Source: an uncultured Gemmatimonadaceae bacterium (GTDB taxonomy: Bacteria; Gemmatimonadota; Gemmatimonadetes; Gemmatimonadales; Gemmatimonadaceae). Taken from it: a stretch of 64,000 bases of DNA. Positions within the stretch are counted from its first letter, which is position 1, and the number at the start of each line of letters is the position of its first letter. Shown here one piece after another: positions 8,390 to 54,945 of the stretch. The stretch is from assembly GCA_963716745.1 (NCBI GenBank), contig OY970320.1, positions 3,136,001 to 3,200,000 of the forward strand, given 5' to 3'. Below the pieces are notes generated by a model that made no database searches, was not told the origin of the DNA, and saw only the letters and a list, made by a program, of their open reading frames with translations. Made by a program: the position numbers and the translations under genes.

Positions 8390-8394
8390 CGTCT

Positions 8395-17823: not shown

Positions 17824-17874
17824 GCCATGGAACCCATCGATCCCCGGTGAGCCGCCGGGGCGGGGGTCAGCCCC

Positions 17875-19450: not shown

Positions 19451-19609
19451 CGCATCCGGGCCTGTGCGTCCGCCTTTACTCACAACTGCCAGGGGCTGGG
19501 GCGCGGCGCCTAGAGGATTGCGACCGTGGTGGCGCGGAGTCGCGCGGAGGTCTTCGGAGGTCATCGCTTGACTTCGCTTCGACCCGCTCGCAATCTGAAC
19601 GAATCCAAC

Positions 19610-19927: not shown

Positions 19928-19933
19928 GGTCGC

Positions 19934-20878: not shown

Positions 20879-20893
20879 CTCCAGCGGGTGCGC

Positions 20894-21427
20894 TCAACGT
20901 TCCTGCCGCACGATGCGTGTCGTCACCGAAAGCTGCCCCACATGACGCATCGCGTGCTCCGCCCCGTGCACGAGGCAGCCGATGACCGTTGACGGGAGCT
21001 GCGCCCTCCCCACGCCTCGAAAATCGCCGAGCGTGGAGACGTCGATCGTGCGGAGTTCGGCCACAGCGGCCTGAACTCGCGCGGTCAATACATCGAGCAC
21101 CCGCGCGACGTCGGCCGCGGCAAGCGGACCGCCTTCCGCACGGATCTCCGCGAATTGTTCTTCCGAGAGCGCGTTCCCACGGGCGTACGTGAACAACCGG
21201 TCGATGACTGCGGCAATGTGTCGCACGTGGAACGCCGCCGACGCCACTCCGCCGGGCCGCGCGTTCCACTCGGCCTCAGTCAGATCCTCGACGAGGCCGC
21301 GCACACTCTCGTCGACTTGAAGCAGGATGTGCGCAACGGGCTGCAAGACGGCGGGGACGCCCTCGACGGGACCGCGCTGCCACCATTCGGTAGTTGCCGT
21401 TCTCCCCGGCTTCGCCGGCTCGCTCAT
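20894..21427 (-). CDS. DinB/YfiT-family protein
   Basis: FHVRHIAA..DRL; HGAEHAMRHVGQ. Confidence 0.82.
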   Translation of the reverse strand: MSEPAKPGRTATTEWWQRGPVEGVPAVLQPVAHILLQVDESVRGLVEDLTEAEWNARPGGVASAAFHVRHIAAVIDRLFTYARGNALSEEQFAEIRAEGGPLAAADVARVLDVLTARVQAAVAELRTIDVSTLGDFRGVGRAQLPSTVIGCLVHGAEHAMRHVGQLSVTTRIVRQER

Positions 21428-21693
21428 TTCTTGATCCGCCTCACGATCCATAGGAGCAAACAAGCCCCGATCACCGCGATGAGGATCTCGCCGATATACC
21501 CGGAGCCGTGGAGACCGATCAGGCCGAAGACGAAATTGCCGAGAAGCGCGCCGACCACGCCGACGAGGAGATCGCCGAGCAGCCCGAATCCGCTTCCCTT
21601 CATGATCTTGCCGGCGAGAAAGCCGGCGATGATGCCGACGATGACGATGTAGAGCAGCGTCTGTGCTTCGAAGCCTAGGTAGTAGTCGTGCAA
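21424..21693 (-). CDS. GlsB/YeaQ/YmgE stress-response membrane protein
   Basis: VGIIAGFLAG..GVVGALLG..AVIGA. Confidence 0.85.
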   Translation of the reverse strand: MHDYYLGFEAQTLLYIVIVGIIAGFLAGKIMKGSGFGLLGDLLVGVVGALLGNFVFGLIGLHGSGYIGEILIAVIGACLLLWIVRRIKK

Positions 21694-21810
21694 TGGGCGC
21701 TCCGCCGATTCGGATCTGGATAATCATAGGGCTTTTCGGAGTGTGGCGCTGACGGCAGGAATGGGCGGCTGGCGATCGCCCGTCGTGACCCGGGTGACGT
21801 AGATGACAGC

Positions 21811-21890
21811 CAAAGAAAAAGCCCGCGCTCCCGCGCGGGCTTTGACTGAATGACGGTGGACGCAGTCGACGGCGAAGCGGTGTCCCGCTC
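21811..21890 (-). repeat. tRNA-Ser trailer/terminator module without a tRNA (att-like junction 1)
   Basis: CAAAGAAAAAGCCCGCG..CGCGGGC-10 nt-TGACGG, same layout as at 31416 and 54815. Confidence 0.65.
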
Positions 21891-21896
21891 GTCGCG

Positions 21897-22505
21897 CTAG
21901 ATGCGGAGCGCGAGCACCATCAGCCCGACGGCGGCGATCCAGCTGCCGGCCACGCGTACGGCGATCCGTGTCCACCCCGCAGTGAGCCAGCGGACCGCGC
22001 TAATGGTGTAGGCGAGAACGAGCAGCCCGCCGATCGCGACGCCGGGGGCGAAGCGCCATATGGAGGCGCCGGCGCCGATCTCGCCACCGTTCGCGAAGCC
22101 AAGCGTGAGCCCCACGATCGCGGCGAGTGCCAGCAGCGCCGCGCGCGGCAGCGGCCACGCGCCGGCCACCAGCACGCCGAGCACCAGCATGGCGCCAAGC
22201 TCCAGTACTCCGAGGTCGGGCACGCGCCCGAGCGCGGCGCCGATCGCTGCGCCGGCGAGTAGCGCGAGCGGCGCGATGCCGAGCACGCGCACTGCTGCAT
22301 CGCGTCCCTGCTGCGCCGCGAGCATGCCGAGCGCGATGGTGGGGGTGAGCGTCTCCAGCGCGGAGAGCATGTGAAGCATGCCGCCGTAGAAATCGCCGGC
22401 GCCGGGAAATGCGTGCGCATGCGCCGTGGCTGGCAGAGCCGCCAAGAGCACCATCGCCGCGCGCACACTCCGCGCGGTTGGTCGCCAGTAGGCCGCGCGT
22501 CTCAC
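21897..22505 (-). CDS. HupE/UreJ-family membrane protein (divergent)
   Basis: AHAH..GGMLH; NGGE; RVAGSWIAAVG; GTGA overlap with upstream gene. Confidence 0.72.
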   Translation of the reverse strand: MRRAAYWRPTARSVRAAMVLLAALPATAHAHAFPGAGDFYGGMLHMLSALETLTPTIALGMLAAQQGRDAAVRVLGIAPLALLAGAAIGAALGRVPDLGVLELGAMLVLGVLVAGAWPLPRAALLALAAIVGLTLGFANGGEIGAGASIWRFAPGVAIGGLLVLAYTISAVRWLTAGWTRIAVRVAGSWIAAVGLMVLALRI

Positions 22506-23092
22506 AGCGCGAGCACCAAGTAGTACACGCCGCCGGCGGCGATCGCCGCGCCGAGCGTGCGGAGCAATCGATCTCCCCATGACCAACGGTGCACGAGGGC
22601 GATCGCGATCCCGGTGACGTGCAGCAAGCCGGTGGCGAGCACGAATCCCAAGCCGTAGGCCAGCGGCGCCGCCGCCTTGGGCAGCTCGAGCCCATGCGCG
22701 TAGCCGTGAAAAATGGCGAAGATCCCGACGAGGATCGCCGCCGCCCACAGCGGCGGCTTGAGCGCGAAGAGGATCGCGGCGCCGAGGAGCAACGCCGACG
22801 CCGCCACGCCGATCTCCACGCCGGGGAGATACACGCCGCGAACACCGAGCGCGCCGCCTACGGACATCACGAGTGGGAACGTGACCGGCAGCAGCCAGAT
22901 GGCCGGCGCGCCGAGCTGCGAACCCCAAATGCCCACCGCGATCATCGCGAGCATGTGATCGGGCCCCGTGAGCGGATGCAGGAATCCGCTCGCGAATCCT
23001 GTCGCTACGCCGCCGGTGTGCGCGCTCGCCGGGGCCGCAGCCAGCGCGAGCGCCAGCAGCGCGAACGCGAGCACCGAGCCGCGCGGCCTCAC
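22502..23092 (-). CDS. HupE/UreJ-family Ni/Co permease-like protein
   Basis: GFLHPLTGPDHMLAM, FHGYAHG, LLHVTG. Confidence 0.88.
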   Translation of the reverse strand: MRPRGSVLAFALLALALAAAPASAHTGGVATGFASGFLHPLTGPDHMLAMIAVGIWGSQLGAPAIWLLPVTFPLVMSVGGALGVRGVYLPGVEIGVAASALLLGAAILFALKPPLWAAAILVGIFAIFHGYAHGLELPKAAAPLAYGLGFVLATGLLHVTGIAIALVHRWSWGDRLLRTLGAAIAAGGVYYLVLAL

Positions 23093-24114
23093 CAAAACCC
23101 CACGACCCGCTGAATGAACCAACTCGCCGCGATGATCCCAATGGCGTACGCCGGCACGGGGCGCGTCCATCGCGGCCACTTGATGGCGAGCGATCGCAGC
23201 GACCACACGAACGACAGGACCACCGTCACGAACACCAGTTGTCCGAGCTCCACGCCCACGTTGAACGTGAACAGCGCCAACGGAATGTCGCCGCGCGGAA
23301 GCCCGACGCGCGTGAGCGTACCGGCGAATCCGAAGCCGTGCAGCAGTCCGAAGGCGAATGCGATCACCCATGGATGGCGCTGCGCCAAGCCCACCTCGCC
23401 GCGCGCCTGCTTCGCCAGCTCGGTGGCGAGGAACACAATGCTGAGCGCGATCACCGCCTCGACCGGCGGTGGCGGAACGCGCACCAGTCCCAGCGCCGCC
23501 ACCGCGAGCGTGATGCTATGCGCCACGGTGAACGCCGTGATGGTCTTGAGCAGCGGGATCGCGCCGTGCACGAGCAGGAGCAGCCCGAGCACGAAGAGCA
23601 GGTGATCGATGCCGAAGAGGATGTGCTGCATGCCGTACTCGATGTACGTCGCCGACAGCTCGGCGAGCCCGCTCCGCGCCGCCACCACGAGATAGGGGCG
23701 CGACGGATGGACGAGCGTCACGAATCGCGTGCCGTCCTGGAACTCAATGCGCACCAGGACATCGGTGATCGTCATCGCGAGGCCGGGGAAGGCGATCCGC
23801 AATCCCTCGAGCGAACCGGTGGTCGACATCACCACCCATCGCGTGAGATACGAGTCGCCGAGGTCCTGCTCAATGGGCTGTGTCTCGTTGCGCAGCTGGG
23901 CGGGCAGCACCACTGCCACCGGCAGCCGCATTCCCGAGAGCTGCGGCGTGCGCCAGAGCACGGTGTAACGTCCAGGCGCCGTCTCCTTGATCTCGAGGTA
24001 CGCGGGCCGTGACTCGTGCGCATCGAGTGGGCGAGCGCCCACGAGCAGACCGATCGCGGTGAGCAACACCAGCGCGGCGAGGCGCGTGAACGCGCCGGAT
24101 GAGGAACGGATCAT
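23089..24114 (-). CDS. HupE/UreJ-like protein with N-terminal periplasmic domain
   Basis: AHE after signal; HILFGIDHLLFV, TAFTVAHSITL, FGLLHGFGFA, FNVGVELGQ. Confidence 0.88.
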   Translation of the reverse strand: MIRSSSGAFTRLAALVLLTAIGLLVGARPLDAHESRPAYLEIKETAPGRYTVLWRTPQLSGMRLPVAVVLPAQLRNETQPIEQDLGDSYLTRWVVMSTTGSLEGLRIAFPGLAMTITDVLVRIEFQDGTRFVTLVHPSRPYLVVAARSGLAELSATYIEYGMQHILFGIDHLLFVLGLLLLVHGAIPLLKTITAFTVAHSITLAVAALGLVRVPPPPVEAVIALSIVFLATELAKQARGEVGLAQRHPWVIAFAFGLLHGFGFAGTLTRVGLPRGDIPLALFTFNVGVELGQLVFVTVVLSFVWSLRSLAIKWPRWTRPVPAYAIGIIAASWFIQRVVGFW

Positions 24115-25040
24115 GTGGGCGGCGGCCCCTCATCCAGCGCGCCGGCCGGGAGCCGGTAATGCTCCCATCCCGAAGGGAGCACTACCTCGTAGCGGGATCG
24201 CATTTCCTGATACAGCCGATCCCGGATCTTCGCCCGCTCCTCTGCCATGAACTGATCTCGCACGTCTGCGCCGGCCTCTTCGTACGTGGGGACGCGCCCC
24301 GCCGCGAGCGATTCGATGAACACGAGGTGCCAACCCAATCCGGACTCCACCGGGCCGCGCCACGCACCGGGCGCGAGCACGAAGAGGGAATCCGCGAAGT
24401 CGCGCCCGAAAACGCTGGCAACGTTCTGCGGCGTGCGGTCGGCGTAGTAGTCCTGCAGCGCGAACTGGTCGCCGAGCGCCGCGGCACCGCTCCAGCCCGC
24501 CGGCTTCCCCTTGAGCGTCGCGAGCGCCGCCGCCGCGTCAGCTCTTGCGTGTGCACGGCGCGCGTCCGGCGAGAAGTAGATGTGCCGGAAGGAGATGCGC
24601 GGCGGGAAAGCGAATTGCGCAGCGTGAGCCGCGAAGTACGCGCGCAGCGCCGAGTCGGTGGGGATTTCCAGCTTGGACAGATCCTCGGCCAGGAAATCCA
24701 TCTTCTGCACCATCCGGCGCTTGAGGATCTCGTCGCCCTGATCGAGGCCCAGCGCGATCGCTTCGCGATAGAGCACTTCCTCGCGCACGCGCTCGTCCAC
24801 GAGCGAGCGCATCTGTTCGGGCGTGGGAGCCGGGCGCCCTTCCGCCAAGAACGCGACGGTCATCTGGCGCAGGTCGTCGTTCGTGAGTTCGATGCGGCCG
24901 GTGCGGTGCGCGGCATCGCCCCGGTGCACGATCGCATACGCCGCGAAGACCACGAGCCCCCCGGCCAGGAAATGGACGAGGGGCTCGCGCGACCACTGTT
25001 TCGCGAGCTGCCGCAGCCGCGCGGCGCGTGTGCCGCTCAG
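24111..25040 (-). CDS. PpiC/parvulin-like peptidyl-prolyl isomerase (start uncertain)
   Basis: REPLVHF, REEVLYREA..LGLD, GPVESGLGWHLV. Confidence 0.82.
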   Translation of the reverse strand: MSGTRAARLRQLAKQWSREPLVHFLAGGLVVFAAYAIVHRGDAAHRTGRIELTNDDLRQMTVAFLAEGRPAPTPEQMRSLVDERVREEVLYREAIALGLDQGDEILKRRMVQKMDFLAEDLSKLEIPTDSALRAYFAAHAAQFAFPPRISFRHIYFSPDARRAHARADAAAALATLKGKPAGWSGAAALGDQFALQDYYADRTPQNVASVFGRDFADSLFVLAPGAWRGPVESGLGWHLVFIESLAAGRVPTYEEAGADVRDQFMAEERAKIRDRLYQEMRSRYEVVLPSGWEHYRLPAGALDEGPPPT

Positions 25041-27349
25041 GGAGTCGCGCCCGCCGGCTTCCCCGCGGCGGCCTTCATCTTCGCCATCACCGATGGGGCG
25101 AGAAACTGCGGCTCGGCCACCACCTCGTAGTTGGCGTAGCCGAATTCGTTGCTGCGCGCGAGGTAGACCTTCTTGTCGAGCTTGTAGAGCGTGTACGAGA
25201 ATGGCGCGTTGCCGACCATGGTGTTGATCCGGCCATCCTTGATCTCGTAGTGCGCGCCGTCGCCGGCAGTGCCGCGCATCGTGACTTCGCCGAAATCGCT
25301 GGGCTGCGGCACCGCGGGATCGGCGAAGAAGATCATGAAGTTCCCATTCGGCGCCGCGCTCACTTGCACCACGCCGCCGGTGACGTCGTTCTTGATCCAC
25401 GTGGCCTTGTTCACGAACATCGCCGCGAGTTCGGCGTCCATCACCTGCGTGTAGCCCTTGGCCTTGAGATCGGCCACGCTCATCCCCGCGGCGGGGGCGG
25501 CCTTTCGCGCGTCGGTGCTCGGCGTGTACCAGATCGGGGAGCCCCACGCGCGCTCCTGCACTGTTGCCGCCACGATCTCGGGGGGCGCGATGCCGAGGTC
25601 TTTCGCCTGGATGGTGGTCCACCGCGGAGTGGGGATCTCGAGCACGCGGGCATAGTAGAATGCGTGAACGCCGGGCTCGAAGTTCGGATCGGTCCACACC
25701 GCCTTGAGCTCGACGTTGCCGATGGTGTTCGTATACGTGGCGTTCGCGATATCCACCGTGCTGCCCACCGGCCCCACGCGGCCGGTGAACTTGTTCGGCC
25801 TCCGATTACCCGACCACGCGACGTCGTAGATTCGTTCGAAGCTCTGGCCGCTCTTGGACCATCCTTTCACGATCTGTAGCCGGTCGAGATTGCCCGACGC
25901 CGGATCTTTCATGGCCCACACCATAATGGTGGGCGCCCTGCCGGCCATGGCGGGAAGATCGCTCCCCATGGGCACTCCCATCGTGTAGCCCTTGTCGGCC
26001 CAATCTCTCGCGCCGAGCATGGCGGCGGTGTACTTCCACCCGCCGAACATGCGGATCTTGATATGCGGACCGCTGGTGCCGAACGTCTCGCGGCGCTGCA
26101 TCGCGTCGAAGATCGACGCGCGCGTGTTCTCCTCCGCCCACACGCCCGCGATACCGCCGGGGTTCATGTAGCGCACGTCCATCCCGCCGAAGTAGAAGCC
26201 TGCCATGCGCGTCTCGGGCGTCCCATTGAGACCGGCATGTCCGCCGAAGAAGTTCGATTGGCGATATGGCGACGCGCTGTTGTGCGAGTCGGACCCGGCG
26301 GTGAATCCGGTCTTGTACGGATTGAACCCCCAGACGTCCTGCATCGTGATGCCATCCTTCAGCGCCTGGCGCACGTAGCTGCCCGGGATAGCGGGCACCC
26401 CCTGCGGGGTGGCGATGAGCCAACTCATGATCTCGTAGTTCGCGAACTCGTCGTTCGGCGAGAGCAGCGGATGGGCTTCCGATTGCCCCTTGATCTGCTT
26501 GATCTCGATCAGCCGCTCATTGCGCTCACGCGAGGCGGCCCACGCCGCGTCGATGGGACGTCCCTTCTCGTCCACATCGATCGGATACATATGGCCGTCG
26601 GACAGATTGGCGTTGTGCGAAATGGCGAGCAACTCGTTCCCTTGGCTGCGCTGGCCGTCCATCCAGTTCCAGAGATCGGAGGGATCCTGCGAATCGAGCG
26701 CACTGAACGGTTGCGCTGGCAGCTTCGCGCAATCCCGGAAGAAGACATTGCGGTGCATGTTGCGGGCCTGCGGCGCCGAGGTCCACTCGTAGGAGCAGAA
26801 GGCGGTGAACTTGCCGGGCTTGTTGGCGGCATTGGCGGCGGCGTTGTTGGCCTGCCACACCGTGCCGGCCACCTCCGGCGACACGAGCGACTTGATCGGC
26901 TTGTTCTCTATCATCGTCGTGCCGAGCATGAGATAGATGCGCGCCACATTGTCCGGGGTCCGCACCTTGAGCGATTCCGCCACCGGCAGCTTGCTGATGG
27001 CGGACGATGGATCGTTCGCCAGCCGCACAACTCCGGCGTACTCGGCGTGGTCGGTGACGCCCATCCAGTCCAGCGGCGTCTCGATCTTGATCATGAAGCC
27101 GAGCGGGTGCTTGATGGCTTTCCCTTGCGCGTACTCGTAGGCCTCCGCAGGACCGGTGATGCGGTTGCCGAACACATACGCGTCGAAGGACCAGCTCGTA
27201 TGCAGGTGGGTTTCGCCGAAGTAGGGGTTGCGATGCGGTACCTTCGCGGCCGCCGGCTTGGCGGGCGGGTTCGCCTGCGCGAACGATGTGACCGCGCCGA
27301 GCGCGAGCGCGAGCGATGCGGCAGTGATGCGGCGACGAATGCGTGGCAT
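25037..27349 (-). CDS. DUF3604-domain exported putative metallohydrolase
   Basis: GETHLHTSWSFDA, VTDHAEY, HRNV, HNANLS, GSDSHN, QERAWGSPIWYTP. Confidence 0.88.
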   Translation of the reverse strand: MPRIRRRITAASLALALGAVTSFAQANPPAKPAAAKVPHRNPYFGETHLHTSWSFDAYVFGNRITGPAEAYEYAQGKAIKHPLGFMIKIETPLDWMGVTDHAEYAGVVRLANDPSSAISKLPVAESLKVRTPDNVARIYLMLGTTMIENKPIKSLVSPEVAGTVWQANNAAANAANKPGKFTAFCSYEWTSAPQARNMHRNVFFRDCAKLPAQPFSALDSQDPSDLWNWMDGQRSQGNELLAISHNANLSDGHMYPIDVDEKGRPIDAAWAASRERNERLIEIKQIKGQSEAHPLLSPNDEFANYEIMSWLIATPQGVPAIPGSYVRQALKDGITMQDVWGFNPYKTGFTAGSDSHNSASPYRQSNFFGGHAGLNGTPETRMAGFYFGGMDVRYMNPGGIAGVWAEENTRASIFDAMQRRETFGTSGPHIKIRMFGGWKYTAAMLGARDWADKGYTMGVPMGSDLPAMAGRAPTIMVWAMKDPASGNLDRLQIVKGWSKSGQSFERIYDVAWSGNRRPNKFTGRVGPVGSTVDIANATYTNTIGNVELKAVWTDPNFEPGVHAFYYARVLEIPTPRWTTIQAKDLGIAPPEIVAATVQERAWGSPIWYTPSTDARKAAPAAGMSVADLKAKGYTQVMDAELAAMFVNKATWIKNDVTGGVVQVSAAPNGNFMIFFADPAVPQPSDFGEVTMRGTAGDGAHYEIKDGRINTMVGNAPFSYTLYKLDKKVYLARSNEFGYANYEVVAEPQFLAPSVMAKMKAAAGKPAGATP

Positions 27350-27544
27350 GCGTGGGGCTCCAGCGCTGAGGCGTGCGGTTCGTGGGACAGCGCGAGTTGC
27401 CGTATGCCGAGAATGTGGGTCACGGCGTGCGGGCGTGCAATGGGGAGTAGGGAGCGGGGCGAGGTCGCCGCCGCTCGGCGCGCCGCGGCGCGCTATCGCG
27501 GAGCTAAGGGCGGGGGGGGCGTGCACAATTGCACGGCAAGCACG

Positions 27545-27660
27545 AAAGAAAAAGCCCGCACTTCGCGCGGGATTTTTTTCGTTGTGACGGTGAAAGGAGT
27601 CCGGGCCGACCCCGTCTCAAGCGCGAATTCCCATCATTACGGAATTCATCAGGGAGTTTC
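27545..27660 (-). repeat. tRNA-Ser trailer/terminator module without a tRNA (att-like junction 2)
   Basis: AAAGAAAAAGCCCGCAC..CGCGGG..TGACGGTG..AGTC..GTCTC, then GAATTCCC..AGGGAGTTTC. Confidence 0.65.
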
Positions 27661-27817
27661 CTAGGAATGTGCACGGACTCATGCGAGGAGGCTGCTGATT
27701 CTTGGGGACTCGCCTCGCACGCACGAATCGTTGGCCGCTGACCAGGGAATGGTAGGTCGTGTGAATAGACAATGGTGGCCGCGGAGCAGGGATCGCGGCC
27801 TCTTCATTTTGCGCGCC

Positions 27818-30243
27818 TTACTCAGCCCGGATCGCTTCCAGCGGATCGATACGCATTGCGCGAGCGGCAGGCGCGGCAGTGGCGACGAGTCCAACGGCGA
27901 GCAGTCCCGCCGCGACTGCCACGAGCGTGACAGGATCATCCGGTCCGATGCCGAATAGCACGCTCGCCAAGAGCCGATTCGCGGCGAGGGCGAGACCGGC
28001 GCCGAGCGCGAGGCCGGCGCTCACCGGCACGAGGCTCTGCCGCACGACGAGTCCCGCCACCGCGCCATTCGGCGCCCCCAATGCCCGGCGGATCCCGATC
28101 TCGGGGGCGCGCCGCGCCACGTTATACGATGCCGCGCCGAAGATGCCGATCGCCGAGAGCGCGATCGCGAGGAGCCCGAATGCACCGAGTATGATGGCCC
28201 GGTCCCGCTCCGGTGCGACGGAATCAATGCGCACTTGGCCGAATGATCGGATCCGGAAAACCGGAGCGGTGTTGTCCAGTCCGTGTACGGATGCACGGAT
28301 CGTCGCCGCTATGCTCGTCTCGCTGGCGGAACCTCTCACGACAATGCTGAGGTATTCCGACGGCTGCTGTGCGAAGGGATAGTAGACCTGTGGCACCGGC
28401 CTACTCCTGAGCGAGAACGAGTGGATCGTGTGAACGACCCCGACGATCGTTCGCGGATCGCCCCCGACGGACACCGTCTCGCCGAGCGGATTCGCCCCGG
28501 CCCAGTAGCGCTTCGCCATCTCGTCGCTGATGATCGCGACGGAGGGTGCGCCCATCCCATCCCGCTCATCGAAGTCGCGTCCGCGAACGAGCGCGAGTCC
28601 CATGGTTCGAAAGTAGCCTGGCGAGATCGGCTCGAGATCGGCGAAAAGATCCTGCAGTTCCGCCGCCGGAACGGTCGAGCCGCTGATCTGTGCTTGGATC
28701 ATGAGTGACGCTTGACCACCCAACGGGAGATTGCTCACCAATCCCGCCGAAGTGACTCCCGGCGTCCGTCGGATCCTGGCAAGGATGTCGTTCGCGAATG
28801 CCGCGCGCAGCGCCACCGTCGGATACTTCACGGGCGACATGCTGATCTCGGCTGTGACAACGCTCGCGGGCAGCACGCGATCTTGATCGAGCATTCTTGA
28901 AAGGCTCTGGATCACGAGCACGGCGCCGGTCAAAAGGACGAAGCAGAGCGCGACCTGCGCCGTGAGAACGACTTGACGCGTCCTGAGCCCCATTCGAGAA
29001 AGCCCAGCCCGAGCGGCGCCTGGAATACCCTGCGCCTGGCGGCGCAAGATCCCGGCCGCGATCGCTCCCGCAACGAGGCCGGAGAACAGCGAGATCCCCA
29101 GTGTAATGGCATACGCCCGCACGCCGAGTTGTACGTCGCCGAGATCTGAATGTTCAACGACCCCCGAGGCGACCAGGCTGCGCGCGCAAATGAGAGCGAT
29201 CACGAGCCCGGCCAGCCCCCCGAACAGCGACAAGACGAGCGGCTCCGCCATCAGCTGCGCTCTGAATCCGGGCCGGCGTGCCGCCGAGTGCGATGCGAAC
29301 TCTCATCTCGTCCAGGCGCGAACTCGCGCGCGCGAGGAGGAGGCTCGTCACGTTCGCCGTCGCGATCAGCAGAAGGAGACCGGCCATGGTCGCCAACAGG
29401 CGCAAGCTGTCCAACCGATCGTGAGAGAGACTGGAGCGAAGAAGGGTCACCAGCACTCGGGCATCGTACCTCGGCTTGGGGTTCATCAGCCCCGCAATTT
29501 GTGCGGCGAGGAGGTCGACCCGGCGCTGCGCTTGCTGCGATTGAACTCCGGGCCGCAGGCGCGCAACGATCGTCTCGAGGAGCGCGATCTTCAGGAAGCT
29601 TACCTGTGACGGGTCGAACGGCACCGACAGCGGGATCCAGGCCTCCGTCTCGCCGGGAAAGCGGAAGTCCCGGCGGCATGATGCCGACGACCGTGAACGA
29701 TCCGCCGCTCAGCTGGATCACGCTGCCGATAGTGCTCGTTGCGCCTCCGAAATCGCGCCGCCACAGCCCGTCACTGATCACGACGACGTTTCCGTGAATG
29801 CGGCACACGGTCTTCCGGCAGGAACGCGCGGCCGGCGGCGGGTGCGACCCCGAGCACCGAAAAGAAGCCTGGCGTCGCCAGAGTGATCTTGATCCGCTCG
29901 GCACCATCCGCAGACTGGAGATTGGCTGCGCCGGGGGCATATGAGGCGACGCTCTCGAACACATCGCTCTGCGCTTCCCAATCGAGGAGATCGGGAACTG
30001 ATCGCGAGGCGCGATCAGGGTCGCCCGAGCCGTTCGCATTCTCGAGCACCACGATCCGATCCGGTTGGCTCAGAGGCCCCGATTGAAAGAGGACCGTATC
30101 GGCAACGAGAAAGACTGCGACATTCGCGCCGATCCCGAGCGCGAGCGTGGCGATCGTCGCCAGCGCGAAGCCGGGCTGTCGCGCTAGGCGACGGGCGGAG
30201 TCATAGAGGTCGGAGACGAGTCCGCCCGGCAACTGCGGCCATG
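27818..30243 (-). CDS. MacB-like duplicated ABC permease (ADOP type), several frameshifts
   Basis: TLALGIGANVAVF, LLIATANV, EIGIRRALGA, RIDPLEAIRAE spread over four ORF pieces. Confidence 0.8.
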
Positions 30244-30344
30244 TCCAAGAAAACTTCCAGCTCAAAGAAGCTCCCTACGGTGCGGACGCACGGATCGACG
30301 GGCGCGAGGTGCTGAGGTCTCTTCCACACGGATCGCCGCGGTCG

Positions 30345-30743
30345 CTAGTGGTCGCGAATCGAGAGGCCGGTCGCGGTGGAGGCGATCTCCACTCGGGCGC
30401 CGTCGGCCCAAAGGCGCGTCTGCTCGCGCCACGGCAGTGACGTCCAACTTTCCATCACCGAGCGCGCGGAAGTCGGCTGTCTTTATCCCGGGGCCGAGGA
30501 CTACGTTTGCGGGGGTCGATGCCTCGAGCCGTGCGTCGGTGGCCCATCCGCGCATTTCGCGGGGCGACCAGCCGCGCCTCACCGCCGGTGACATCGAGCG
30601 TAAAGCGGACGGGCGTGGCTGGGGTCGGTGGATTTGACGCGGACGGTCACTTGTTCGCCGATCGGCCGCGGCACTGGAGTGAAGCAACCGATCAAGAGGG
30701 TGCCGAGCAATACGCCGATGATGTGCGCGAATCTCTGAGGCAC
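30345..30743 (-). CDS. Putative lipoprotein (frameshifted)
   Basis: RBS GGAGGT, GTG start, MPQRFAHIIGVLLGTLLIG-C lipobox; frame breaks downstream. Confidence 0.45.
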
Positions 30744-30912
30744 GGCTCACCTCCCGGTCGAGATGTCGATGGCGACGCCATAAGATTATGCAGTGCTCGC
30801 TCCGTCGTCGCAATGAACACATTCGAGAATGTCCGGTTCTTTGGGCCAAATTTGGATGCGGACTGTCGTTGGCGGAGGCTCGCTATTCCCCGCTTCCTTG
30901 ATGGGTCAATCA

Positions 30913-31357
30913 ATGTCGACTGCTCGCCATTTCCTGATCGCTTTTGCTCTGCTCGTGCCAGTTGCCGCTCTGCGGCCAGTGTCAGTGCGGAACCTCGCGA
31001 CATCGAACCTCCTGTGCAGCCGCGACCAATTCAACCGACGGCGTGGGGTACCATATTAAGGAGATTGTTTCAAGCACTGACACGGCAACGGCGCGCTACC
31101 GCGCACTCCTCGGCCTCCCGCAGATGGCGAAGACTGCGGTAACCGTTGACGTCGCGAGCTCGGATTGCGGCCGGCTCTTGACCGCGTATCAAGCCGCAGG
31201 CGGATACCCTGCCGCGCATGGGCAGCTTTTCGTGTGGCGGCTCGCGAATGGGATTTACTACGCCGCGTACGATCCATACGGCGTTCCCGGCACCAGAGCG
31301 GTGCTCTTCTTTCGAGCGGATTGGACCTTCCTCAGCATGATGCCGACCGACTACTGA
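30913..31357 (+). CDS. Exported hypothetical protein (frameshift near 31020)
   Basis: MSTARHFLIAFALLVPVAA signal in one frame; body continues in ORF 30944-31357. Confidence 0.5.
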
Positions 31358-31415
31358 GTATCGCGGGCATCCATACCTAAGTCGCCGCGGTCCCAGGGCG
31401 AAATCGATGGCCACC

Positions 31416-31446
31416 CAAGAAAAAGCCCGCACTTTCGCGCGGGCTC
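31416..31446 (-). terminator. Intrinsic terminator of tRNA-Ser(GCT)
   Basis: Minus strand AGCCCGCGCGAAAGTGCGGGCTTTTTCTT. Confidence 0.75.
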
Positions 31447-31457
31447 AGACTTCCTGA

Positions 31458-31548
31458 CGGAGCGGGAGGGATTCGAACCCTCGATAGAGGTTTAAGCCCC
31501 TATGCCGGTTTAGCAAACCGGTGCCTTCAGCCTCTCGGCCACCGCTCC
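31458..31548 (-). tRNA. tRNA-Ser (anticodon GCT); TCA in place of encoded CCA
   Basis: GGAGCGG..CCGCTCC-G acceptor; CCGGT-TTGCTAA-ACCGG anticodon arm; long variable arm; GGTTCGAATCC. Confidence 0.95.
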
Positions 31549-31644
31549 TATGTGCCAGACGCTATACGCGCCTTTTTTTGTAGTTGCATGGCGTTGCCGA
31601 GCGGCGAAGTCTAGCCGCCCGACACCACTTGGGCAACGACTTAA

Positions 31645-32718
31645 CTACTTCCTCACGCACACCGTCAGCGTATGCGCCAGCCCGATATGGTCGGTCTCGC
31701 TGCTCGATCCGTAGCCCCGCGCGCTCGATACAATCGTGCATCACCTTCGAATGGTACAGCTGACTATTCCCATTGGCGATGCACGTGAAGTACAGCGAGA
31801 TCTGCTGCAGGCAGAACGCGGCGTTCTCGAAGAGCTGGCGGTCCCAGTACGTCTCGAGGATCAGCAGTTTCGCCTCTGCTGACATCGCATTCACTGTCTT
31901 CCGCAGGATGGAGACGATCTCATCCTCGGAGAAACAGTCGAGGAACTGGCTCATCCAGATCACGTCGTGGCCGGAGGGCAGGGCGCTGCTCTCCAAGAGT
32001 ATGTCCACTGGATAGCCGCTGATGCGCGACGACAATCCGTGCTGCGACACGTTGTCGATCGCGAGATCCAGCTGCGCCGGCAAGTCGCACATCGTGACGG
32101 CGACATTGGGCGAATGGGCCGCGCACGCCAGCGCCCACTTTCCGGTATTCGCCCCCACGTCGAGCAGCCGTTGCACCGGCCGCTCGAATACCAGCGGCAG
32201 CGCCTCCTCGAATGCCTGCGTCGAACAGAAGTGCTCGAACGCGAACCAGCTGCGGCGCACCGGCTCCGGCAGCGTCGCGAGCGCCGCGTACACGGTCGCA
32301 TGATCTCCGTCGAGCTCGCGCAATCCCACCGGCGTGCCCTGCGTGATCGCTTCCGTCAGGTGATATAGCCCCTTGTAGTTGACATCGTGAACGAAATCCA
32401 TGTTCACGCGAGTCATCCTGTCGTGCAGCACGAACTGCGCCGTGCGCGTGGTGCTGTACCGCCCATCGTTCACGATGAGCAGGCCGATCCCGAGACCCGC
32501 CTCGAGGAGCACGCGCACGCCGTACGGCGGGAGCCGCAAGTTGCGCAGACGATCTCCTCCTGCGTGGCGCCGGCCCGCCTGCGCGTCGACGGCCTCGAGG
32601 ATGCCGAGATCGCGCAGCGCCTGCGACGCCTGGAACACGATCGGCGCGAACGCGATGTGCTGCGCCGCCGCGTGATCGACTCCGCCGCCGATCGCGTGTC
32701 CTTCTCGAAGAAGCGCAT
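31645..32718 (-). CDS. SAM-dependent methyltransferase, ApeB-like (frameshifts near both ends)
   Basis: IAFAP..FQ; LLDVGANTG; WMSQFLDCF; ETYWDRQ. Confidence 0.8.
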
Positions 32719-48983: not shown

Positions 48984-49737
48984 TGAACGGAGTCTCGATC
49001 ACCCGCGATCTCCCGCAAGATCCATTGCCACCGCGCAACTTCAAGCAGTTCTCGGGAAGCATGCTGAAGTCGCCTGAGCGGATGCTTTTGATTCATGGAG
49101 TTTCGCTGTGCGTGTAGGAATAAGTGTGCGCCACTAACCACGGATTTCTTGTGAGCGCCGAATACGGAGTCCTGTCGGCGGAGCAGGGAACGCATTCGCG
49201 CGGGGATCGCTGGCGTCTCCGCGGCGGGCATTAGCCCTGCGGAGTGGAACGGCCCTGTCACACTCCTTTGATAGCGTTCTTGCGTAACTGCTGGGAGACG
49301 TCAGGCCAATTCACGCTAGAAAACTCCAATCTCATGCGGCTTGCATTTAGCTATTAAGTTGACGAATGTGATATACCTGACAGTCACGCGCTCCCAGGGA
49401 GCCGGCGCGAAGAGAATCCTTCGAACCTCCTCCGCATGTACCCCTTACGCATGCATCCACGCGTTTCGCCAGTGCCTTCTCCTGCTCCGTGTGCCTCGCT
49501 CAGGACTGCGTCCCGGTCTCGTGTGAATCGCCGGTGCGCGAGAGGACTGTCGACACCCGGCTCGTCGAGACATTGGGGAACTGCGCTTCGCGCCACGCCC
49601 TACCGCAGTCCGCGGCTTTGGATCGCTGGTCCGGATCGGGGGCACGTGCTTAGGCCCCTCGATCGCCGCAAGCCTGGAATCAGCGCGCGGTCGCGCGGTC
49701 GCGATTGCCTCGTGTCAAGACGCAGTCGAGTAACCGC

Positions 49738-50418
49738 ATGACGAACTCGCTCCGTCGGATCACGGTAGTTCTGGTCGACGACAATCAGCTCGTGCGCGAA
49801 GGTATCGCCTCACTAGTTACGAGTGTGCCCGGTTTTGAGGTTGTGGGCGCATCCGGAGATGTGGAGGACACACTCCTCAAGATTCCAGTCGTCCTCCCGG
49901 ACATTGTCTTGCTCGACTACGGTCTTTCCGACCGCAATAGTCTGACTGTGACCTCGAATATTCATGCTGACGTGCCAGCATTGAAGATCATTCTCATGGG
50001 CTTGCTTCCCCTGTTCGATGAATTCGCAGCCTACCTTGATGCGGGAGCGACTGCATTTATCGCGAAGGACGCGTCGTTCGAGGAATTCCTCGCTTCACTG
50101 CAAAGCGTGGCGAAGGGGCAGGAATCCTCACTGAATCGGATGAAGACTTCAGTCTTTGAGCGCGCCGCGGCCCTCGCAGCGAGCAAGCCCCCACCCGACG
50201 TCCTCGGAGCGATCCGACTCACGAGCCGAGAGCGTGAGGTAATTGATCTGCTGAAGGAGGGGCTCAGCAATCGAGAGATCGCGAGTCGTCTCAATCTCGC
50301 CATTCACACGGTGAAGAGTCACGTGCACAACATCCTTGAAAAGCTCGCCCTTAGGAGCCGTCTAGAAGTTGTCGCCTACTCGCACTCTGTGGGCAAGTCC
50401 GACGGATCGATGGCTTAG
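49738..50418 (+). CDS. NarL/LuxR-family response regulator (no adjacent kinase)
   Basis: LVDDN..VREG, PDIVLLD, LTSREREV..SNREIA..TVKSHVHNILEKL. Confidence 0.9.
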   Translation: MTNSLRRITVVLVDDNQLVREGIASLVTSVPGFEVVGASGDVEDTLLKIPVVLPDIVLLDYGLSDRNSLTVTSNIHADVPALKIILMGLLPLFDEFAAYLDAGATAFIAKDASFEEFLASLQSVAKGQESSLNRMKTSVFERAAALAASKPPPDVLGAIRLTSREREVIDLLKEGLSNREIASRLNLAIHTVKSHVHNILEKLALRSRLEVVAYSHSVGKSDGSMA

Positions 50419-50859
50419 ATTCTCTCGCTGTTGCGCGCCTGTCGCGCGGCGCGCGGATGAGGGCGACGTGCCGTAAGTCTTTGCTCGCTCGGATGAGCGA
50501 ACTGGGACGCCGCTCTACGAGGCTCGATCGTGCTGCGTAGATCGTCGTCCTTGATCTGCTCCTGAGGTTCGCCACCTGCTCGCTCCGGACGAGAACGTCC
50601 GGTTATGGCTCCCGAACCTTTACGCTTGCGGCGAGCGTTCGGCGCCGAATTACGAATGCGCGATAGACGCTCGGAGCGCACCAGTCGACGCGCATTGCGA
50701 TTGATGAAGGGAGCTCTGATTCGATATCGCTCCTTGGGCTGAGAGGCGCCCAAGTCAACCGTTAGAGCGATTGTAGGCTCGTTCCTGCGAGCATAGACTG
50801 CTGACCAGCAGAAGGTCGAGTCACGCAGTTTGCGAACTCTCCTAGGCGATCGAGTGTCG

Positions 50860-51340
50860 ACCGACACCATTCGCGGGACCTCTTATGCCTCAATTGCGAT
50901 TGTGGTTAGTGCCTCTCGGACGTGCCATACAGGCCAACGAGGACGCAACTCCTCTCACCGCTGACGCGTGGCCGGTTCGCGCGCACGGCAGCTATGTGAA
51001 TGCGCGTCTCGTGCGAGCTCCATGCTCGATAGTGGCGCTTCTCGTTGATGCGGGCGACATAGCGCGGCTTTCGGCAGCGGCAGCGTCTCAGGGCGCGATC
51101 GGTATACGAAGTTGGAACGAGATGGCTACTGATGCGCGCGTGCCGGACCTCACCGATTTCCAACTCTGCCTCAGCGACTCGCGGGATAGTACCGCGATCT
51201 TGGCGGACGAAGCCGCCGGTGCGTTGCTAACGATACACGGGACACCAACGATTGTGATTAATGGCCGTCTCTTTGAGGGCGCGCTGTCGCCGGTCGATCT
51301 CGAGAAGGAGGTGCAGCGGGCGCTGGCTCGCAAAAGCTGA
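50860..51340 (+). CDS. DsbA/thioredoxin-like protein, degenerate or frameshifted
   Basis: C-terminal IHGTPTIVINGR..G; no intact CxxC seen. Confidence 0.45.
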
Positions 51341-52038
51341 TCGACCCTACTGACGAACATCAATAGCACGACTTCCACCGCTCGCCGCAATTCGCCATAG
51401 AATGTGATACATCACCGAACCTGAGGCTTAGGTTGAAAATGATAGACACAGGAGTCGGCGTTTAGGTCGCTAGTCGCGCGGGGTGGCGGCATTAGTCCAG
51501 TGCACGCCATTCCAGGCCTCCCAGCTACCAGTTGACGCTGTGGGGCGATCCGATTGCCTGCCGGTCGCGTCGACTGAACGGTCGCCTTTGATCGTGACGC
51601 ATGAGGGCATTCAGTCGCTACTCTCACGCGATTACCCGGCCGCATTCAACTGGACTCGGGAGTTGCGAGTTGGTACTGGTTCGTCCTCAGTCCTGAACTC
51701 GAGGTCGTGGCAACAAGATCGACGTCTGCGGGCGAAACGATTCCAAAGGGGGTCGACGTTCAGCGAGCCTTTCCAGCAGTTGCTGGCGTGACCACGGCGC
51801 AAGTGCAGCTCTGGAATGAGCCACTCGGCGATCGTCACACGGATGTGGTGGTGGTCCTCCTTCGGAGCAGTGACCAACAGGCCACCGCGGCCTGCAGCTC
51901 GCACACGAGCGCGGTGCGGTAGAGGAATTGCTGCTGCTTGAGGAATTCGCGGCGCGACGCAGATCAGCGACTCTGCGTCGATTGCCGCGAACGCTCGCCG
52001 GCTGTAGTCGTAGAGCCGTGCCTTAGCTGGAGAAGAGC

Positions 52039-54469
52039 ATGAGGGAGCAATCCGAGCCTGGCCGCTGGGTCACAGCTTTGCAGGATTTCCGGTTCGTTCT
52101 CAGAATGAGCCGCCGTGCACCAGCGTCAGCTATCGCGATCGTGCTCACGATTGCGACTGGAGTCGGCGTAAACACAGTTTTGTTCGACGTGGTCGATCGC
52201 CTCCTCTTGCGCTCTCCACCCGGAATCAGCTCTCCCGAGAGCGTCTTTCATCTCGAGCTTTGCCGGAGACCAGCCTGCCGAGTTCTTCACATCCTACCCC
52301 CGCTTCCTCGACCTGCGAAGCGGTGTGCACGCTTTCACGTCAATTGCAGCCACGGGTAGGATCGATCTGTCGCTCGGGATTGGCGCAGCGTCTCGAATGG
52401 CGCACATCGAGATCGTGACCGCAAGCTATTTCAACGTCTTGAATGCGAAGCCGACCATGGGCGATTCTTCGCCTCGAACGAGGACCGGTTCGGAGGGGAG
52501 CGTGTCACTGATACTGCCTTCGGCGCCTTGCGGGCGAGTCTCGCGCGGGCGACGGAGTGCGTGCAGAGCGCCGTACGAGCATTGGTGTGGCGCCCATGGG
52601 ATTCGCTGGCATTGACATTGAGAAGACGGATGCTTGGATTCCTTTCAGCGTCGGCGCTGCTTACCACAGCGGCAGCGAATGGTATTCCGATGAACGCTCT
52701 GCATGGTATGAGGTGGTCGCCAGAGTTGGGCCTAATCATCCGCGTCCCAAGCTGCCGTCCAAAGCACGATTGTCGAACGCCGCGGGATGGCACATCGTCC
52801 TTGGCTAGGCGCGAAGCCAAGAGTGACTCCGTGCCCATCGCCGGTTCGCGCTTCGCAGACGGATCGACGAGCATTCGTGCCAGGGTCGCGGCTTGGCTGT
52901 TTGGCGTGTCGTTCGCCGTGCTGCTGATTGCTGTCGCGAACGTCGGCAACCTTGTCGTTGCACGAACGATTCGGCGACGAAGAGAGCTCGGAATTCGCGT
53001 AGCCCTTGGCGCGACCCGCGCGCGAATCGCGCAGATATTCCTCATAGAGGGACTCGCGCTAAGCATTACAGGTTGGTTTGTGGCTCTGGCAATCGCATCT
53101 GGCGGCACAATGTTGGTTCGGCGCATGCTTCTGCCCGACGTGGAGTGGGGCAGTGTATTTCTCGGCCATCGCGCGTCATTGTTCGCCGCTGCCGCAGCGG
53201 TGGTGATCGGAATCTCGTCGGACTACTGCCCTAGCCCGCCTGGGGTTGTCCGAGTTTACGTCCCTGCTCGGTGGATCAATACACGAGCGAGCCGTCGAAG
53301 CGACAATCTACGCCGCGGCCTTGTCTTACTTCAGGCGAGTCTCGTGGCTGCGCTACTGGTGGGCGCGGGCCTGTTCTCGCGAAGCCTTCAGCAGATTCGC
53401 ATTCTCGATCTGGGCTTTTCCGTGGATCGCCTTCTGATCGCCACCATACAATCACGATGGGATTCATGTCAAGCAATTAGACCAAGTTCTGCGGCGCACT
53501 CAGGGCATCTTCAGGGCACATCCGGCGTGGATGCAACAAGTCTCTCACTTTACTGCCCCTTTCACGTGGAATATTTCGATGCCCGTCCACCTTCCTGGCG
53601 TGCGGGGCACCGCCGTTATTGGAGGGACGCGCGCAATTGGCAACGGAATCTCCGCGGATTTTTTTGGGGCACTTGGTATCCTGCTCCGTGGAGGTCGCGG
53701 CTTCGCGCGCGGTGACGTGGTAGGAGCGCCGCTTGTCGCAGTTGTGAATGAGAAGATGGCTTCTACTCTGTGGCCCGGTGAGAATGCGATCGGCCGCTGC
53801 GTCCTTTTCAGGGCCGACACAACGTGTTCGACAGTAGTCGGCGTTGTGGCGGACACTCGGCTTCGAGCACTTCACGAAGAACAAGAGGCACAGTTCTACG
53901 TACCGCTCGAGCAACGCGCCGATCTATTCACGGCTACCACTCTCATGGTTCGTACCTCCGGTGAACCGTCTCAAGTCATCGCGATGGTACGGCGTGCCTT
54001 CTTCCAGGTCGATCCGACCCTCGTGGGCGTGGACGTGCGCACAATGCGCCGACAGCTTGAGCCACTGATCCGCCCCTGGCGGCTGTCGGCGACATCTTCG
54101 ACCTACAGGACCACTCGCCATGGCAGTAGCCGCGATTGGATTGTATGGATTGGTCGCTTATGGCGTGACCAACCGCGCCGGAGAGTCTCCGTGCGCGCAG
54201 CGCTGGGCGCTTCACCAGCGAAGCTCGTCCTTCTCGCGTCTCGCGAAGCCGTGCTATTGACGCTCCTAGGAATTCTAATTGGTTTCGGTGTCGCGGTCTC
54301 CGTGGGGGGTGAGGTGGGGCCATTGCTGTTCGACGTGTCGCCGTGGGACCCAGTGGTGTACGCGCAGGTCGCCGCTTGCATGCTCGGTATCGCGGTGCTT
54401 GCGGCAGCGGGTCCCTCTTGGCGCGCCTCGCACACGAATCCGAGTACAGCGTTGCGGGCTGAATCCTAG
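52039..54469 (+). CDS. MacB-like duplicated ABC permease (ADOP type), many frameshifts
   Basis: LQDFRFVLR, TIATGVGVNT, LLIAVANVGNL, ELGIRVALGA, NPSTALRAE. Confidence 0.75.
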
Positions 54470-54814
54470 CCCAAAAGAAACGTCCGCGCTCTCGCCCGGG
54501 CAGCGTAATGAGGGACGTTGGTTCCAATTTGTCGGACCGTCTTCCTCAACGAGTTGAGGTGTAATGGATGAATTCCCGCCGGCTGCGGGTGAGACAAAGA
54601 TACGGGTCTCAACTGTCACAACTCCTGCTGCTACGTGATCACATTCGTGAATTCAACGACTGGCGCCGAGGCGGATTATGCGTTGCCCTAGCGACATCTG
54701 AAACTGGTACTGCCCAGCGCGCTGACTGAGAAGGCGGTCCTAAGCGGGCCGAAATCTGGCAGGATCGTGGCTCGTGGTGCGCCGCAGAGAACCGGGCAGG
54801 GATGGCCAGTCCCC

Positions 54815-54845
54815 CAAGAAAGAGCCCGCACTCGCGCGCGGGCTC
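54815..54845 (-). terminator. Intrinsic terminator of tRNA-Ser(TGA)
   Basis: Minus strand AGCCCGCGCGCGAGTGCGGGCTCTTTCTT. Confidence 0.7.
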
Positions 54846-54856
54846 AGACTTGCTGA

Positions 54857-54945
54857 CGGAGCGGGAGGGATTCGAACCCCCGGAACCCTTGCGGGTCCTC
54901 CAGTTTTCAAGACTGGCGCAATAAACCAGACTCTGCCACCGCTCC
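54857..54945 (-). tRNA. tRNA-Ser (anticodon TGA); TCA in place of encoded CCA
   Basis: GGAGCGG..CCGCTCC-G acceptor; CCAGT-CTTGAAA-ACTGG anticodon arm; long variable arm; GGTTCGAATCC. Confidence 0.95.

Follow-up and report, generated by a model that had tools for sequence, protein, structure and literature searches.

The stretch of DNA analysed here, 64,000 nucleotides of an uncultured soil Gemmatimonadaceae bacterium (assembly GCA_963716745.1, contig OY970320.1, positions 3,136,001 to 3,200,000; hereafter the window), carries gene units stacked downstream of tRNA-Ser genes, each opening with a trailer and terminator module. We consider it likely that these units belong to a family of non-autonomous, att-flanked cassettes that integrate site-specifically, share conserved ends and are moved in trans. 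This reading is based on the rarity of a 14-mer that marks the module, on empty and occupied sites in related genomes, on long ends that are conserved around unrelated cargo, and on the finding that copies of the module without a tRNA (orphans) lie only behind tRNA-Ser genes in the genomes of the genus compared. Positions are those of the window unless another sequence is named, orientation is given on the tRNA-sense (minus) strand, and the proximal and distal ends of a cassette are abbreviated LE and RE. The source genome, G000, comprises 3,292,296 bases with 67% GC, and G002 and G004 are relatives from the same genus.

Modules at the tRNA-Ser genes

An earlier note on this DNA, made from its letters alone, had described four copies of the module, two attached to tRNA-Ser genes and two orphans, and a search of the window together with the junction sequences established that all four exist and read as it had stated. 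The two tRNA genes, both intact and both taken here as integration targets, are tRNA-Ser(GCU) (anticodon gct, 31458..31548, minus strand; ARAGORN, and Rfam tRNA at 59.2 bits), whose last bases ...CTCCG abut the first cassette, and tRNA-Ser(UGA) (anticodon tga, 54857..54945, minus strand; ARAGORN). On the minus strand every module reads CCG, which is the end either of the tRNA or of an orphan arm, then TCA, a spacer of 10-13 nt, a GC hairpin with a 3-4-nt loop, and TTTTTCTT. Written on the plus strand the junction is TGACGG, at 21851-21856 (site 1), 27585-27590 (site 2), 31455-31460 and 54854-54859.

When the window was searched with the 14-mer AAGAAAAAGCCCGC, allowing at most 2 mismatches, six matches were obtained where 0.14 are expected, and none of 100 shuffled sequences reached six. 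Four of the six are the modules themselves, with exact matches at 21813, 27546 and 31417 and one mismatch at 54816; the remaining two, at 46439-46452 (minus strand) and 56287-56300 (plus strand), are weaker, with 2 mismatches each. The reading against which the earlier note had asked its proposal to be held, that of a generic terminator present at many non-tRNA loci, is ruled out, since the exact 14-mer occurs only four times in the 3,292,296 bases of the genome, three of them inside the window, and since the homology among copies reaches far past the hairpin.

A terminator scan over the range 20000-33000 scored three of the copies, all on the minus strand (21818-21843, 27555-27571 and 31423-31446), and from the combination of a GC-rich hairpin with a T-run we infer that the module hairpins act as intrinsic (rho-independent) terminators. 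Among the four tRNA-Ser genes of G000 those with anticodons gct and tga have the module, the one with cga has a related hairpin, and the one with gga has none. The tRNA was the sole real match in an Rfam scan, weak Leu_leader matches being terminator look-alikes. Elsewhere in G000, at genome positions 1,602,014-1,602,056 (plus strand), there is a hairpin-only copy of the proximal end, consisting of spacer, hairpin and T-tract with no CCG arm. It lies directly after the stop codon of a gene and about 90 nt from a convergent tRNA-Gln, is kept at the same place in G004 (locus L027) and G002 (L028), and may be either a relic or the source of the terminator part.

The long conserved cassette ends

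The four modules are the inner parts of much longer conserved ends. Pairwise blast of 22 junction-centred segments placed the start of homology between tRNA-attached and orphan copies at -3, that is at CCG, or at most 9 nt away from it, in dozens of pairs. Upstream of the junction orphan copies have as much as about 210 nt in common, and downstream of it copies of all kinds are alike for as much as about 175-182 nt, around unrelated cargo. The proximal end, of about 180 nt (175-182), consists of TCA, GGAAGTC.GAG, the GC hairpin, TTTTTCTTTGG and further conserved motifs. The distal end, of about 210 nt, has TTCCCTG repeats at fixed positions (-209, -188, -165, -69 and -57 in direct and -47 in inverted orientation), a 10-bp hairpin whose outermost pair is A-T in most copies and G-C in contig L098 and at site 2 of G000, an inner 28 nt resembling the T-arm and acceptor of a decayed tRNA-Ser, and a final CCG. 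The heptamer occurs 2-6 times per 240 nt in seven distal ends, as compared with 0.012 times per 250 nt genome-wide; a TTCCCTG cluster at G000 position 3,290,135 is a purine-rich run and unrelated. Profiles of both ends found no full copy in G000 outside the window.

Where a distal end meets a proximal end the joint reads CTTCC-ACCGTCA-GGAAG, a 5-bp inverted repeat around a 7-bp centre, and from this layout we infer that the crossover lies within the 7-bp centre. The tRNA 3' sequence recurs at the far end of the inserted DNA, as a 43-nt partial tRNA in G004 and elsewhere as an exact repeat of 3-5 nt together with the decayed 28-nt arm. The earlier note had held the two orphan arms to be related, which is borne out, as the distal-end profile matches 235 nt at site 2, and site 1 can be aligned with other distal ends for some 30 nt past CCG. 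Its very short core is right for the strictly shared sequence, CCGTCA, but partly an illusion, the conserved ends running for about 210 and 180 nt.

Cassettes A and B behind tRNA-Ser(GCU)

Cassette A is the unit next to tRNA-Ser(GCU). Its LE (31257..31457, minus strand), which is the trailer and terminator of that tRNA gene, consists of TCA, the spacer GGAAGTCTGAG, the terminator hairpin and a T-tract, and is recognized by blast homology from -3 to about +76, by the terminator scan and by the nhmmer LE profile (E 1.1e-28, the copy being in the training set). The cargo (27823..31256, minus strand) comprises an ADOP-family duplicated permease in two open reading frames (ORFs), 27818-29251 and 29251-30039 (Pfam, NCBIfam), and the unannotated ORFs 30262-30849 (minus strand) and 30944-31357 (plus strand). 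The RE (27588..27822, minus strand) contains TTCCCTG-type repeats, the hairpin GAATTCC/GGAATTC, the decayed tRNA-like 3' end and a terminal CCG at 27588-27590; it matches positions 6-243 of the RE profile (E 1.2e-52, also in the training set) and, by blast, the RE of unrelated contigs at 70-79% identity over 117-214 nt. A stretch of about 500 nt, 30878-31372, including the ORF 30944-31357 that is convergent on the tRNA, travels with the proximal end: it adjoins tRNA-Ser(GCU) in G000 and tRNA-Ser(UGA) in G002 (contig C20, 271488-271984), and is also found on contigs C10 and C9 of G002.

Cassette B follows. Its LE (27381..27587, minus strand) has a diverged spacer and a hairpin at 27555-27571 with T-runs on both sides, scored as a terminator on both strands, and is matched by the LE profile with E 1e-12 (in the training set). 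The cargo (21897..27526, minus strand) includes by Pfam a DUF3604 protein (25037-27526), a PPIase-domain protein (frame 24111-25697), HupE_UreJ_2 (23089-24114) and HupE_UreJ (21897-23141). All that is left of its RE is a remnant (21854..21890, minus strand) with a CCG end at 21854-21856, which aligns to other RE copies for 11-32 nt beyond CCG and is missed by the RE profile. The gene content of both units thus agrees with that given in the earlier note. Beyond cassette B lies a terminal LE copy (21644..21853, minus strand; LE profile E 4.2e-25, in the training set; terminator scan) that adjoins a conserved flank with a DinB-family gene (20894-21727); this copy and the flank are 97% identical in G004.

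Occupied and empty sites in genomes of the same genus

Indications of movement come from comparison with G004 and G002. To the left of site 1 both match the window at 96-97% identity up to position 21859, and the match resumes at 27813; the intervening cassette B unit, 21860-27812 (5,953 nt), is gone from G004 and from contig C20 of G002, with 44 nt in its place. Read base by base, the single G004/G002 site begins like site 1, with its flank and hairpin, passes through TGACGGTG and goes on as the arm that follows site 2 in G000, so that the switch between the left half of site 1 and the arm of site 2 falls inside TGACGGTG. As judged from this order of bases, one site in G004 and G002 as against sites 1 and 2 in G000 is the geometry of a putative empty site versus attL and attR. 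The segment 27636-27812, about 170 nt of G000 between the permease stop codon and the inner distal end, is not in G004 or G002, which therefore have a truncated distal end there, in which the outer repeats of the TTCCCTG type are missing, as is the 5' half of the hairpin.

Other units at the same tRNA vary as well. Between its full tRNA-Ser(GCU) and a partial copy (the 3' 43 nt of the tRNA plus trailer) G004 has an extra cassette of 2,073 nt encoding a 621-aa NHL-repeat protein, and contigs C10 and C9 of G002 show further arrangements at tRNA-Ser(GCU). DUF3604 was found in two of 31 related genomes, namely G000 itself and G005, the latter with a homologue of 43% identity. Cassette A is common to G000, G004 (88% identity) and G002 (95.6%), and cassette B is present only in G000, yet B is the one further from the tRNA. 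Cassette B may have integrated in the G000 lineage at the internal junction between A and the terminal copy, which has the better inverted repeat, or it may be old and have been lost from the others by recombination between its ends. At tRNA-Ser(CGA) three genomes carry three different inserts (3.75, 2.27 and 3.15 kb) between the end of the tRNA and the same flank.

Of 41 related genomes 38 were matched by a query made up of tRNA and trailer, the tRNA being the part responsible (G012 enters only this tally). Trailer-only matches, that is orphans, were essentially limited to G002 and G004, a few kb downstream of tRNA-Ser(GCU), and full orphans in G000, G002 and G004 are confined to arrays behind tRNA-Ser genes. 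Whole cassettes are thus missing or swapped in G004 and G002 with breakpoints at CCG/TCA (the slash marks the junction), the kind of turnover for which the earlier note had proposed to look. The serial integration that it envisaged, with attL/attR-type junctions, is likewise supported by the empty-site geometry and the turnover of units, but the serine recombinase that it named as the enzyme is not, as discussed below.

Cassette C behind tRNA-Ser(UGA)

Comparison over the whole window brought out a third cassette, of 5.9 kb, which the earlier note had not listed. Cassette C has an LE at 54672..54856 (minus strand; LE profile E 1e-32, in the training set), and its cargo with a distal remnant occupies 48993..54671, where Pfam recognizes a LuxR-type response regulator (49705-50418, plus strand), a thioredoxin-like fragment and an FtsX permease in two frames (52528-54469, plus strand). 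A partial RE at 49070-49201 (minus strand) is an independent profile match (E 5.5e-11). The insert is flanked in G000 by a 5-bp CTCCG repeat, with the distal copy at 48988-48992, and its GC content is 59-60% as compared with 65-70% around it.

The segment 48993-54855 is absent from G004, and a different 2.2 kb takes its place in G002. The tRNA-Ser(UGA) of G004 has no trailer module, its ...CTCCG running straight into sequence corresponding to window position ~48992. Since the unoccupied gene is without the module and the occupied one in G000 has both module and cassette, it is cassette C that brought the trailer and terminator, as the earlier note had proposed for each unit.

Distribution and cargo beyond the locus

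When 201 genomes of the family, from 77 genera, were searched at the DNA level, two of them, G000 and G004, proved to have the ends; G002 did not belong to this set. When a genome collection was scanned with the junction motif, 10 of 43 loci proved to be true copies, all on contigs of G002 and G004 apart from one other Gemmatimonadaceae contig, L068, and the remaining 33 are chance matches in coding-like DNA. As far as searched, these sequence matches would confine the family of ends to one genus of Gemmatimonadaceae. The same kind of scan in metagenomes gave true copies at 13 of 17 loci, five tRNA-attached and eight orphan, where L092, L097 and L099 share one junction sequence and L095 and L102 another. 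Taken together, metagenomes and genus genomes provide about nine independent orphan contexts. Cargo differs from contig to contig and includes CDF efflux, patatin, ChrA/ChrB, MFS, a trypsin-like protease, AhpC, a TOTE primase-helicase, TIR, Fic and PD40 proteins.

No viral contig matched the junction or the tRNA-like arm motif. One, L104 (7,390 nt, a prophage end), matched the distal hairpin motif, and at ~6990-7160 it has at least seven copies of AATTCCCTG/CAGGGAATT, the same motif as in the distal ends of the cassettes. The cluster is bordered on one side by the beginning of a cellular oxidoreductase-like gene and on the other by phage genes (ParB-methylase, large terminase, YqaJ, ERF), which is where an attP arm would lie; L104 has no core, a GC content of 59% and no relative in G000, and is only a lead. 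Sequencing reads give no evidence either way: the four soil runs that contain any of the stretch hold at most 0.25 of the sampled words, as short contigs with pieces of 150-870 nt at a depth of 2-7, and the joints in them, with sides of 21-29 nt, do not fall at a cassette junction.

Search for the recombinase

Profile scans found no recombinase in the window, as the earlier note had said (no match to PF00589 and none to PF00239), or in cassettes A, B and C and the other cassettes examined, and none of 66 ORFs from related contigs matched a recombinase family. No serine recombinases turned up in the genus genomes searched, which are 63-90% complete, with PF00239 matched in none of four and PF07508 in none of three; PF00239 did match 12 of 14 known genomes in a control. 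Neither Y1 (PF01797) nor IS110-type (PF01548) transposases matched in G000, and a search for Y2 (PF04986) was uninformative, because it matched no control genome.

No TTCCCTG lies near the tRNA-Leu/Gly integrase of G000, for which no counterpart is listed in any of G002, G004 and G005. A classical chromosomal integron lies at 2,775,635-2,779,810 of the genome (L084, 5636-9810), 360 kb from the window, with an integrase-like gene spread over three frames, after which come four attC-like repeats, each some 95 nt long, that run from GCCTAAC to CGTTA and are spaced by 1384, 687 and 322 nt; these repeats are unrelated to the cassette ends. Only fragments of the integron integrase are present in G000, G002 and G004; the one genome with a full-length copy (414 bits) is G005, which gave no match to the cassette ends. 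The dif site of G000, at 278,177-278,204, has a canonical ATAA-N6-TTAT core, coincides with the maximum of the cumulative GC skew, lies 22 kb from xerD, and is unlike the junction core CTTCC-N7-GGAAG.

Because the junctions combine inverted repeats around a 6-8-bp centre with many arm-type repeats, the recombinase is probably of the tyrosine type and supplied in trans. The comparison made in the earlier note with an integron-style array served in trans is useful as an analogy, but only as that, since the sites are not attC-like and the integron of G000 itself is a separate locus with different sites.

Proposed mechanism and alternative explanations

In the mechanism that we favor for the non-autonomous cassettes, a circular form would join the distal to the proximal end, giving an attP-like site with the core CTTCC-ACCGTCA-GGAAG. 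The unit would then be inserted by recombination inside the 7-bp centre, with either the 3' terminus of a tRNA-Ser gene (...CTCCG/T..) or the junction of a cassette already in place as the partner, catalysed by a tyrosine recombinase acting in trans from a helper that would be absent from the genomes examined. The outcome is visible in the arrays: the tRNA is preserved, the proximal end of the newcomer provides it with a new trailer and terminator, and older units are pushed outward, their genes then followed by the terminator of the next unit. Several points weigh against this mechanism. Searches with PF00589, PF00239, PF07508, PF01797, PF01548 and TIGR02249 found no recombinase fit for moving the cassettes, the only tyrosine recombinases of G000 being XerD, XerC, the tRNA-Leu/Gly integrase and the frameshifted integron-integrase-like gene. 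The viral, genome and metagenome collections yielded no autonomous relative, and no circular form or empty-site read was seen, in short, low-depth soil-run contigs only. Several profile scores are inflated, because the window's own copies sat in the nhmmer training alignments, and the comparison genomes are metagenome-assembled genomes, 63-83% complete. Frameshifts in cassette genes may be assembly errors. The inserts at tRNA-Ser(CGA) are weaker evidence, the canonical proximal start being present only in G002 and the canonical distal end in none. Finally, the lack of cassette B in G004 and G002 is equally explicable by deletion between its directly repeated ends.

This last point leads to an explanation with no dedicated recombinase at all, in which the ends are patches of homology, units are exchanged or lost, after DNA uptake, through RecA-dependent recombination or through slippage between direct repeats, and the arrays are fossils of past events. 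The ends are indeed direct repeats of 45-400 nt and 75-98% identity, enough for homologous exchange, and were cassette B deleted by recombination between sites 1 and 2, the product would be exactly the site seen in G004 and G002; this, along with the failure to find a recombinase, speaks for the explanation. We nevertheless regard it as decidedly improbable, since the unoccupied tRNA-Ser(UGA) of G004 shares with the distal junction of cassette C only 5-6 nt, too little for such exchange, and since it leaves unexplained both why one distal end, with its positioned repeats and inverted-repeat core, accompanies many unrelated cargos and why every boundary falls at CCG/TCA. A serine recombinase with a 2-bp crossover acting in trans, the version of the earlier note, would fit the shortness of the sequence strictly common to all junctions (CCGTCA), and tandem islands at the ssrA 3' end of Dehalococcoides do use serine recombinases (PMC3146451). 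The negative PF00239 and PF07508 searches described above stand against it, however, and long ends, arm-type repeats and an inverted repeat around a 7-bp centre are atypical of the attP of a serine integrase and suit a tyrosine recombinase with arm-type sites, so that a serine enzyme is not supported and retains very little probability.

Enzymes of the IntI and Xer types are known to move units that lack an integrase, and G000 has an integron-integrase-like gene with a real attC-type array (2.776 Mb) as well as XerC and XerD, so that a chromosomal integron integrase or XerCD might move the cassettes in trans, in an integron-like or an IMEX/pdif-like manner (IMEX, integrative mobile elements exploiting Xer). 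However, the attC-like repeats (GCCTAAC...GTTA, ~95 nt) bear no relation to the cassette ends, the only intact integrase is that of G005, where those ends were not found, and the canonical dif differs from CTTCC-N7-GGAAG; we therefore think it very unlikely that either enzyme is responsible. Hardly any likelihood attaches to the view that the orphans are a repeat of about 390 nt resembling a miniature inverted-repeat transposable element (MITE), decayed duplicates of tRNA-Ser or, at the extreme, convergent generic terminators. In its favor, metagenome contigs show distal and proximal ends contiguous with unrelated genes on either side, the inner 28 nt of the distal end is tRNA-like, the hairpin is a good terminator, and a hairpin-only copy follows a gene at 1,602,014. 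Yet the boundaries of the indels between genomes fall at the internal CCG/TCA joint and not at the outer edges of a 390-nt unit, full orphans occur in arrays behind tRNA-Ser and none is dispersed, the copies remain homologous well past the hairpin, and the genome has few instances of the motif.

A bolder variant of the trans-mobilized cassettes, possible but in our opinion doubtful, is a cassette-capture platform of its own kind, in which the 3' ends of tRNA-Ser genes play the role of attI, standard ends of ~200 nt mobilize any gene set and re-terminate the tRNA, and the recombinase, which would belong to none of the tested families or be borne by a helper, never travels with the cargo. Such a platform would be genus-wide and not a set of decayed islands.

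Relation to known systems

A close likeness is to Dehalococcoides, where multiple tandem islands with strain-specific cargo lie downstream of one small-RNA gene, ssrA, bounded by repeats of its 3' end; 15 of them have no integration module and were suggested as possible cis-mobilizable elements (CIMEs), and 16 carry one, with serine recombinases (PMC3146451). Tandem units bounded by copies of the 3' part of a small-RNA gene, some of them without integration genes, are thus on record for these islands and for CIMEs. The cassettes here differ in that all those examined are without an integration module, that the crossover falls at the very last bases of the tRNA and not in the T-loop, that the repeated unit includes trailer and terminator, and that three isoacceptor genes are used. 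As in CIMEs, conserved junctions are found on both sides and no recombinase in A, B, C or the 66 ORFs of related contigs. However, long ends of ~180 and ~210 nt conserved around unrelated cargo are unexpected for randomly decayed integrative and conjugative elements (ICEs) or integrative and mobilizable elements (IMEs), and this uniformity makes an origin by random decay less likely; the collections searched yielded no related ICE, IME or phage carrying such ends.

Tycheposons of Prochlorococcus are cargo elements at tRNA genes (tRNA-Ser(TGA) in a figure legend) with partial-tRNA flanks, in which successive integrations push older elements inward into the island and degenerate remnants are common (bioRxiv 10.1101/2020.12.28.424599). 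Many tycheposons, by that account, carry replication genes, whereas the cassettes here have none, are of lesser size (2-6 kb) and all use one kind of end pair. Among the features of tRNA islands generally, a repeat of the tRNA 3' part at the far end and a restored tRNA are present and an integrase gene beside the att site is not.

Integrons consist of integrase-less cassettes with structured sites and one entry point, are served by an external recombinase and turn over rapidly between relatives. The arrays here resemble them in placing integrase-less cassettes, with structured sites, at one entry point and in differing between close relatives. This point is, however, the 3' end of a tRNA with no intI beside it (the only IntI-like gene of G000 is 360 kb away), the junctions have neither the boxes nor the layout of attC, whose consensus is RYYYAAC ... 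GTTRRRY, and the cassettes may be multi-gene operons in either orientation. Xer-dependent modules such as IMEX and the pdif modules of Acinetobacter plasmids are also recombinase-less gene modules with short sites used by a host enzyme, but the junctions here are unlike the dif of G000 and the ends far longer than a 28-bp Xer site. Among the titles and abstracts listed on genomic islands, tRNA genes and integrases in Gemmatimonadetes, none describes such a system for the phylum, which does not prove that none has been published. What sets the cassettes apart from their known kin is the lack of a recombinase in any cassette, the uniform long ends, the crossover at the last bases of the tRNA, the cassette-borne tRNA terminator and the use of three isoacceptor genes.

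Further features of the window

Several cargo genes are in pieces, namely the ADOP permease (27818-30039), split at 29251, the FtsX gene in two frames (52528-54469) and TonB-receptor fragments in G002 (L060, 10204-11628); these are either pseudogenes or the result of indel errors in assembly. No NCBIfam or Pfam family was assigned to the ORFs 18137-20788 (883 aa), 30262-30849, 30944-31357 and others, and the 883-aa ORF gave no usable atlas match. Away from the modules the window differs from G004 at 4292-8396, a rearranged 4-kb stretch, and at 18639-19481, within the 883-aa ORF, where G004 has 6.9 kb extra; in G002 there are 2.7 kb extra at 17836-17869, with no module there.

Implications

Gemmatimonadota are abundant in soil and little studied, and to our knowledge almost nothing is known of how they exchange genes. 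The cassettes described here amount to a compact and recognizable system that moves accessory genes between close relatives, with three tRNA-Ser genes as docking points, and the kinds of genes moved include those for metal and chromate resistance, permeases, two-component regulators and defence-like genes. Through the conserved ends metagenomes can be searched directly for the flexible genes of this lineage, and the recombinase might be traced by the same route. Should the latter prove never to reside in cis, integrons would be joined by a second dedicated cassette platform served in trans and, if the proposed mechanism is true, one in which the terminator of an essential tRNA gene comes with every cassette.

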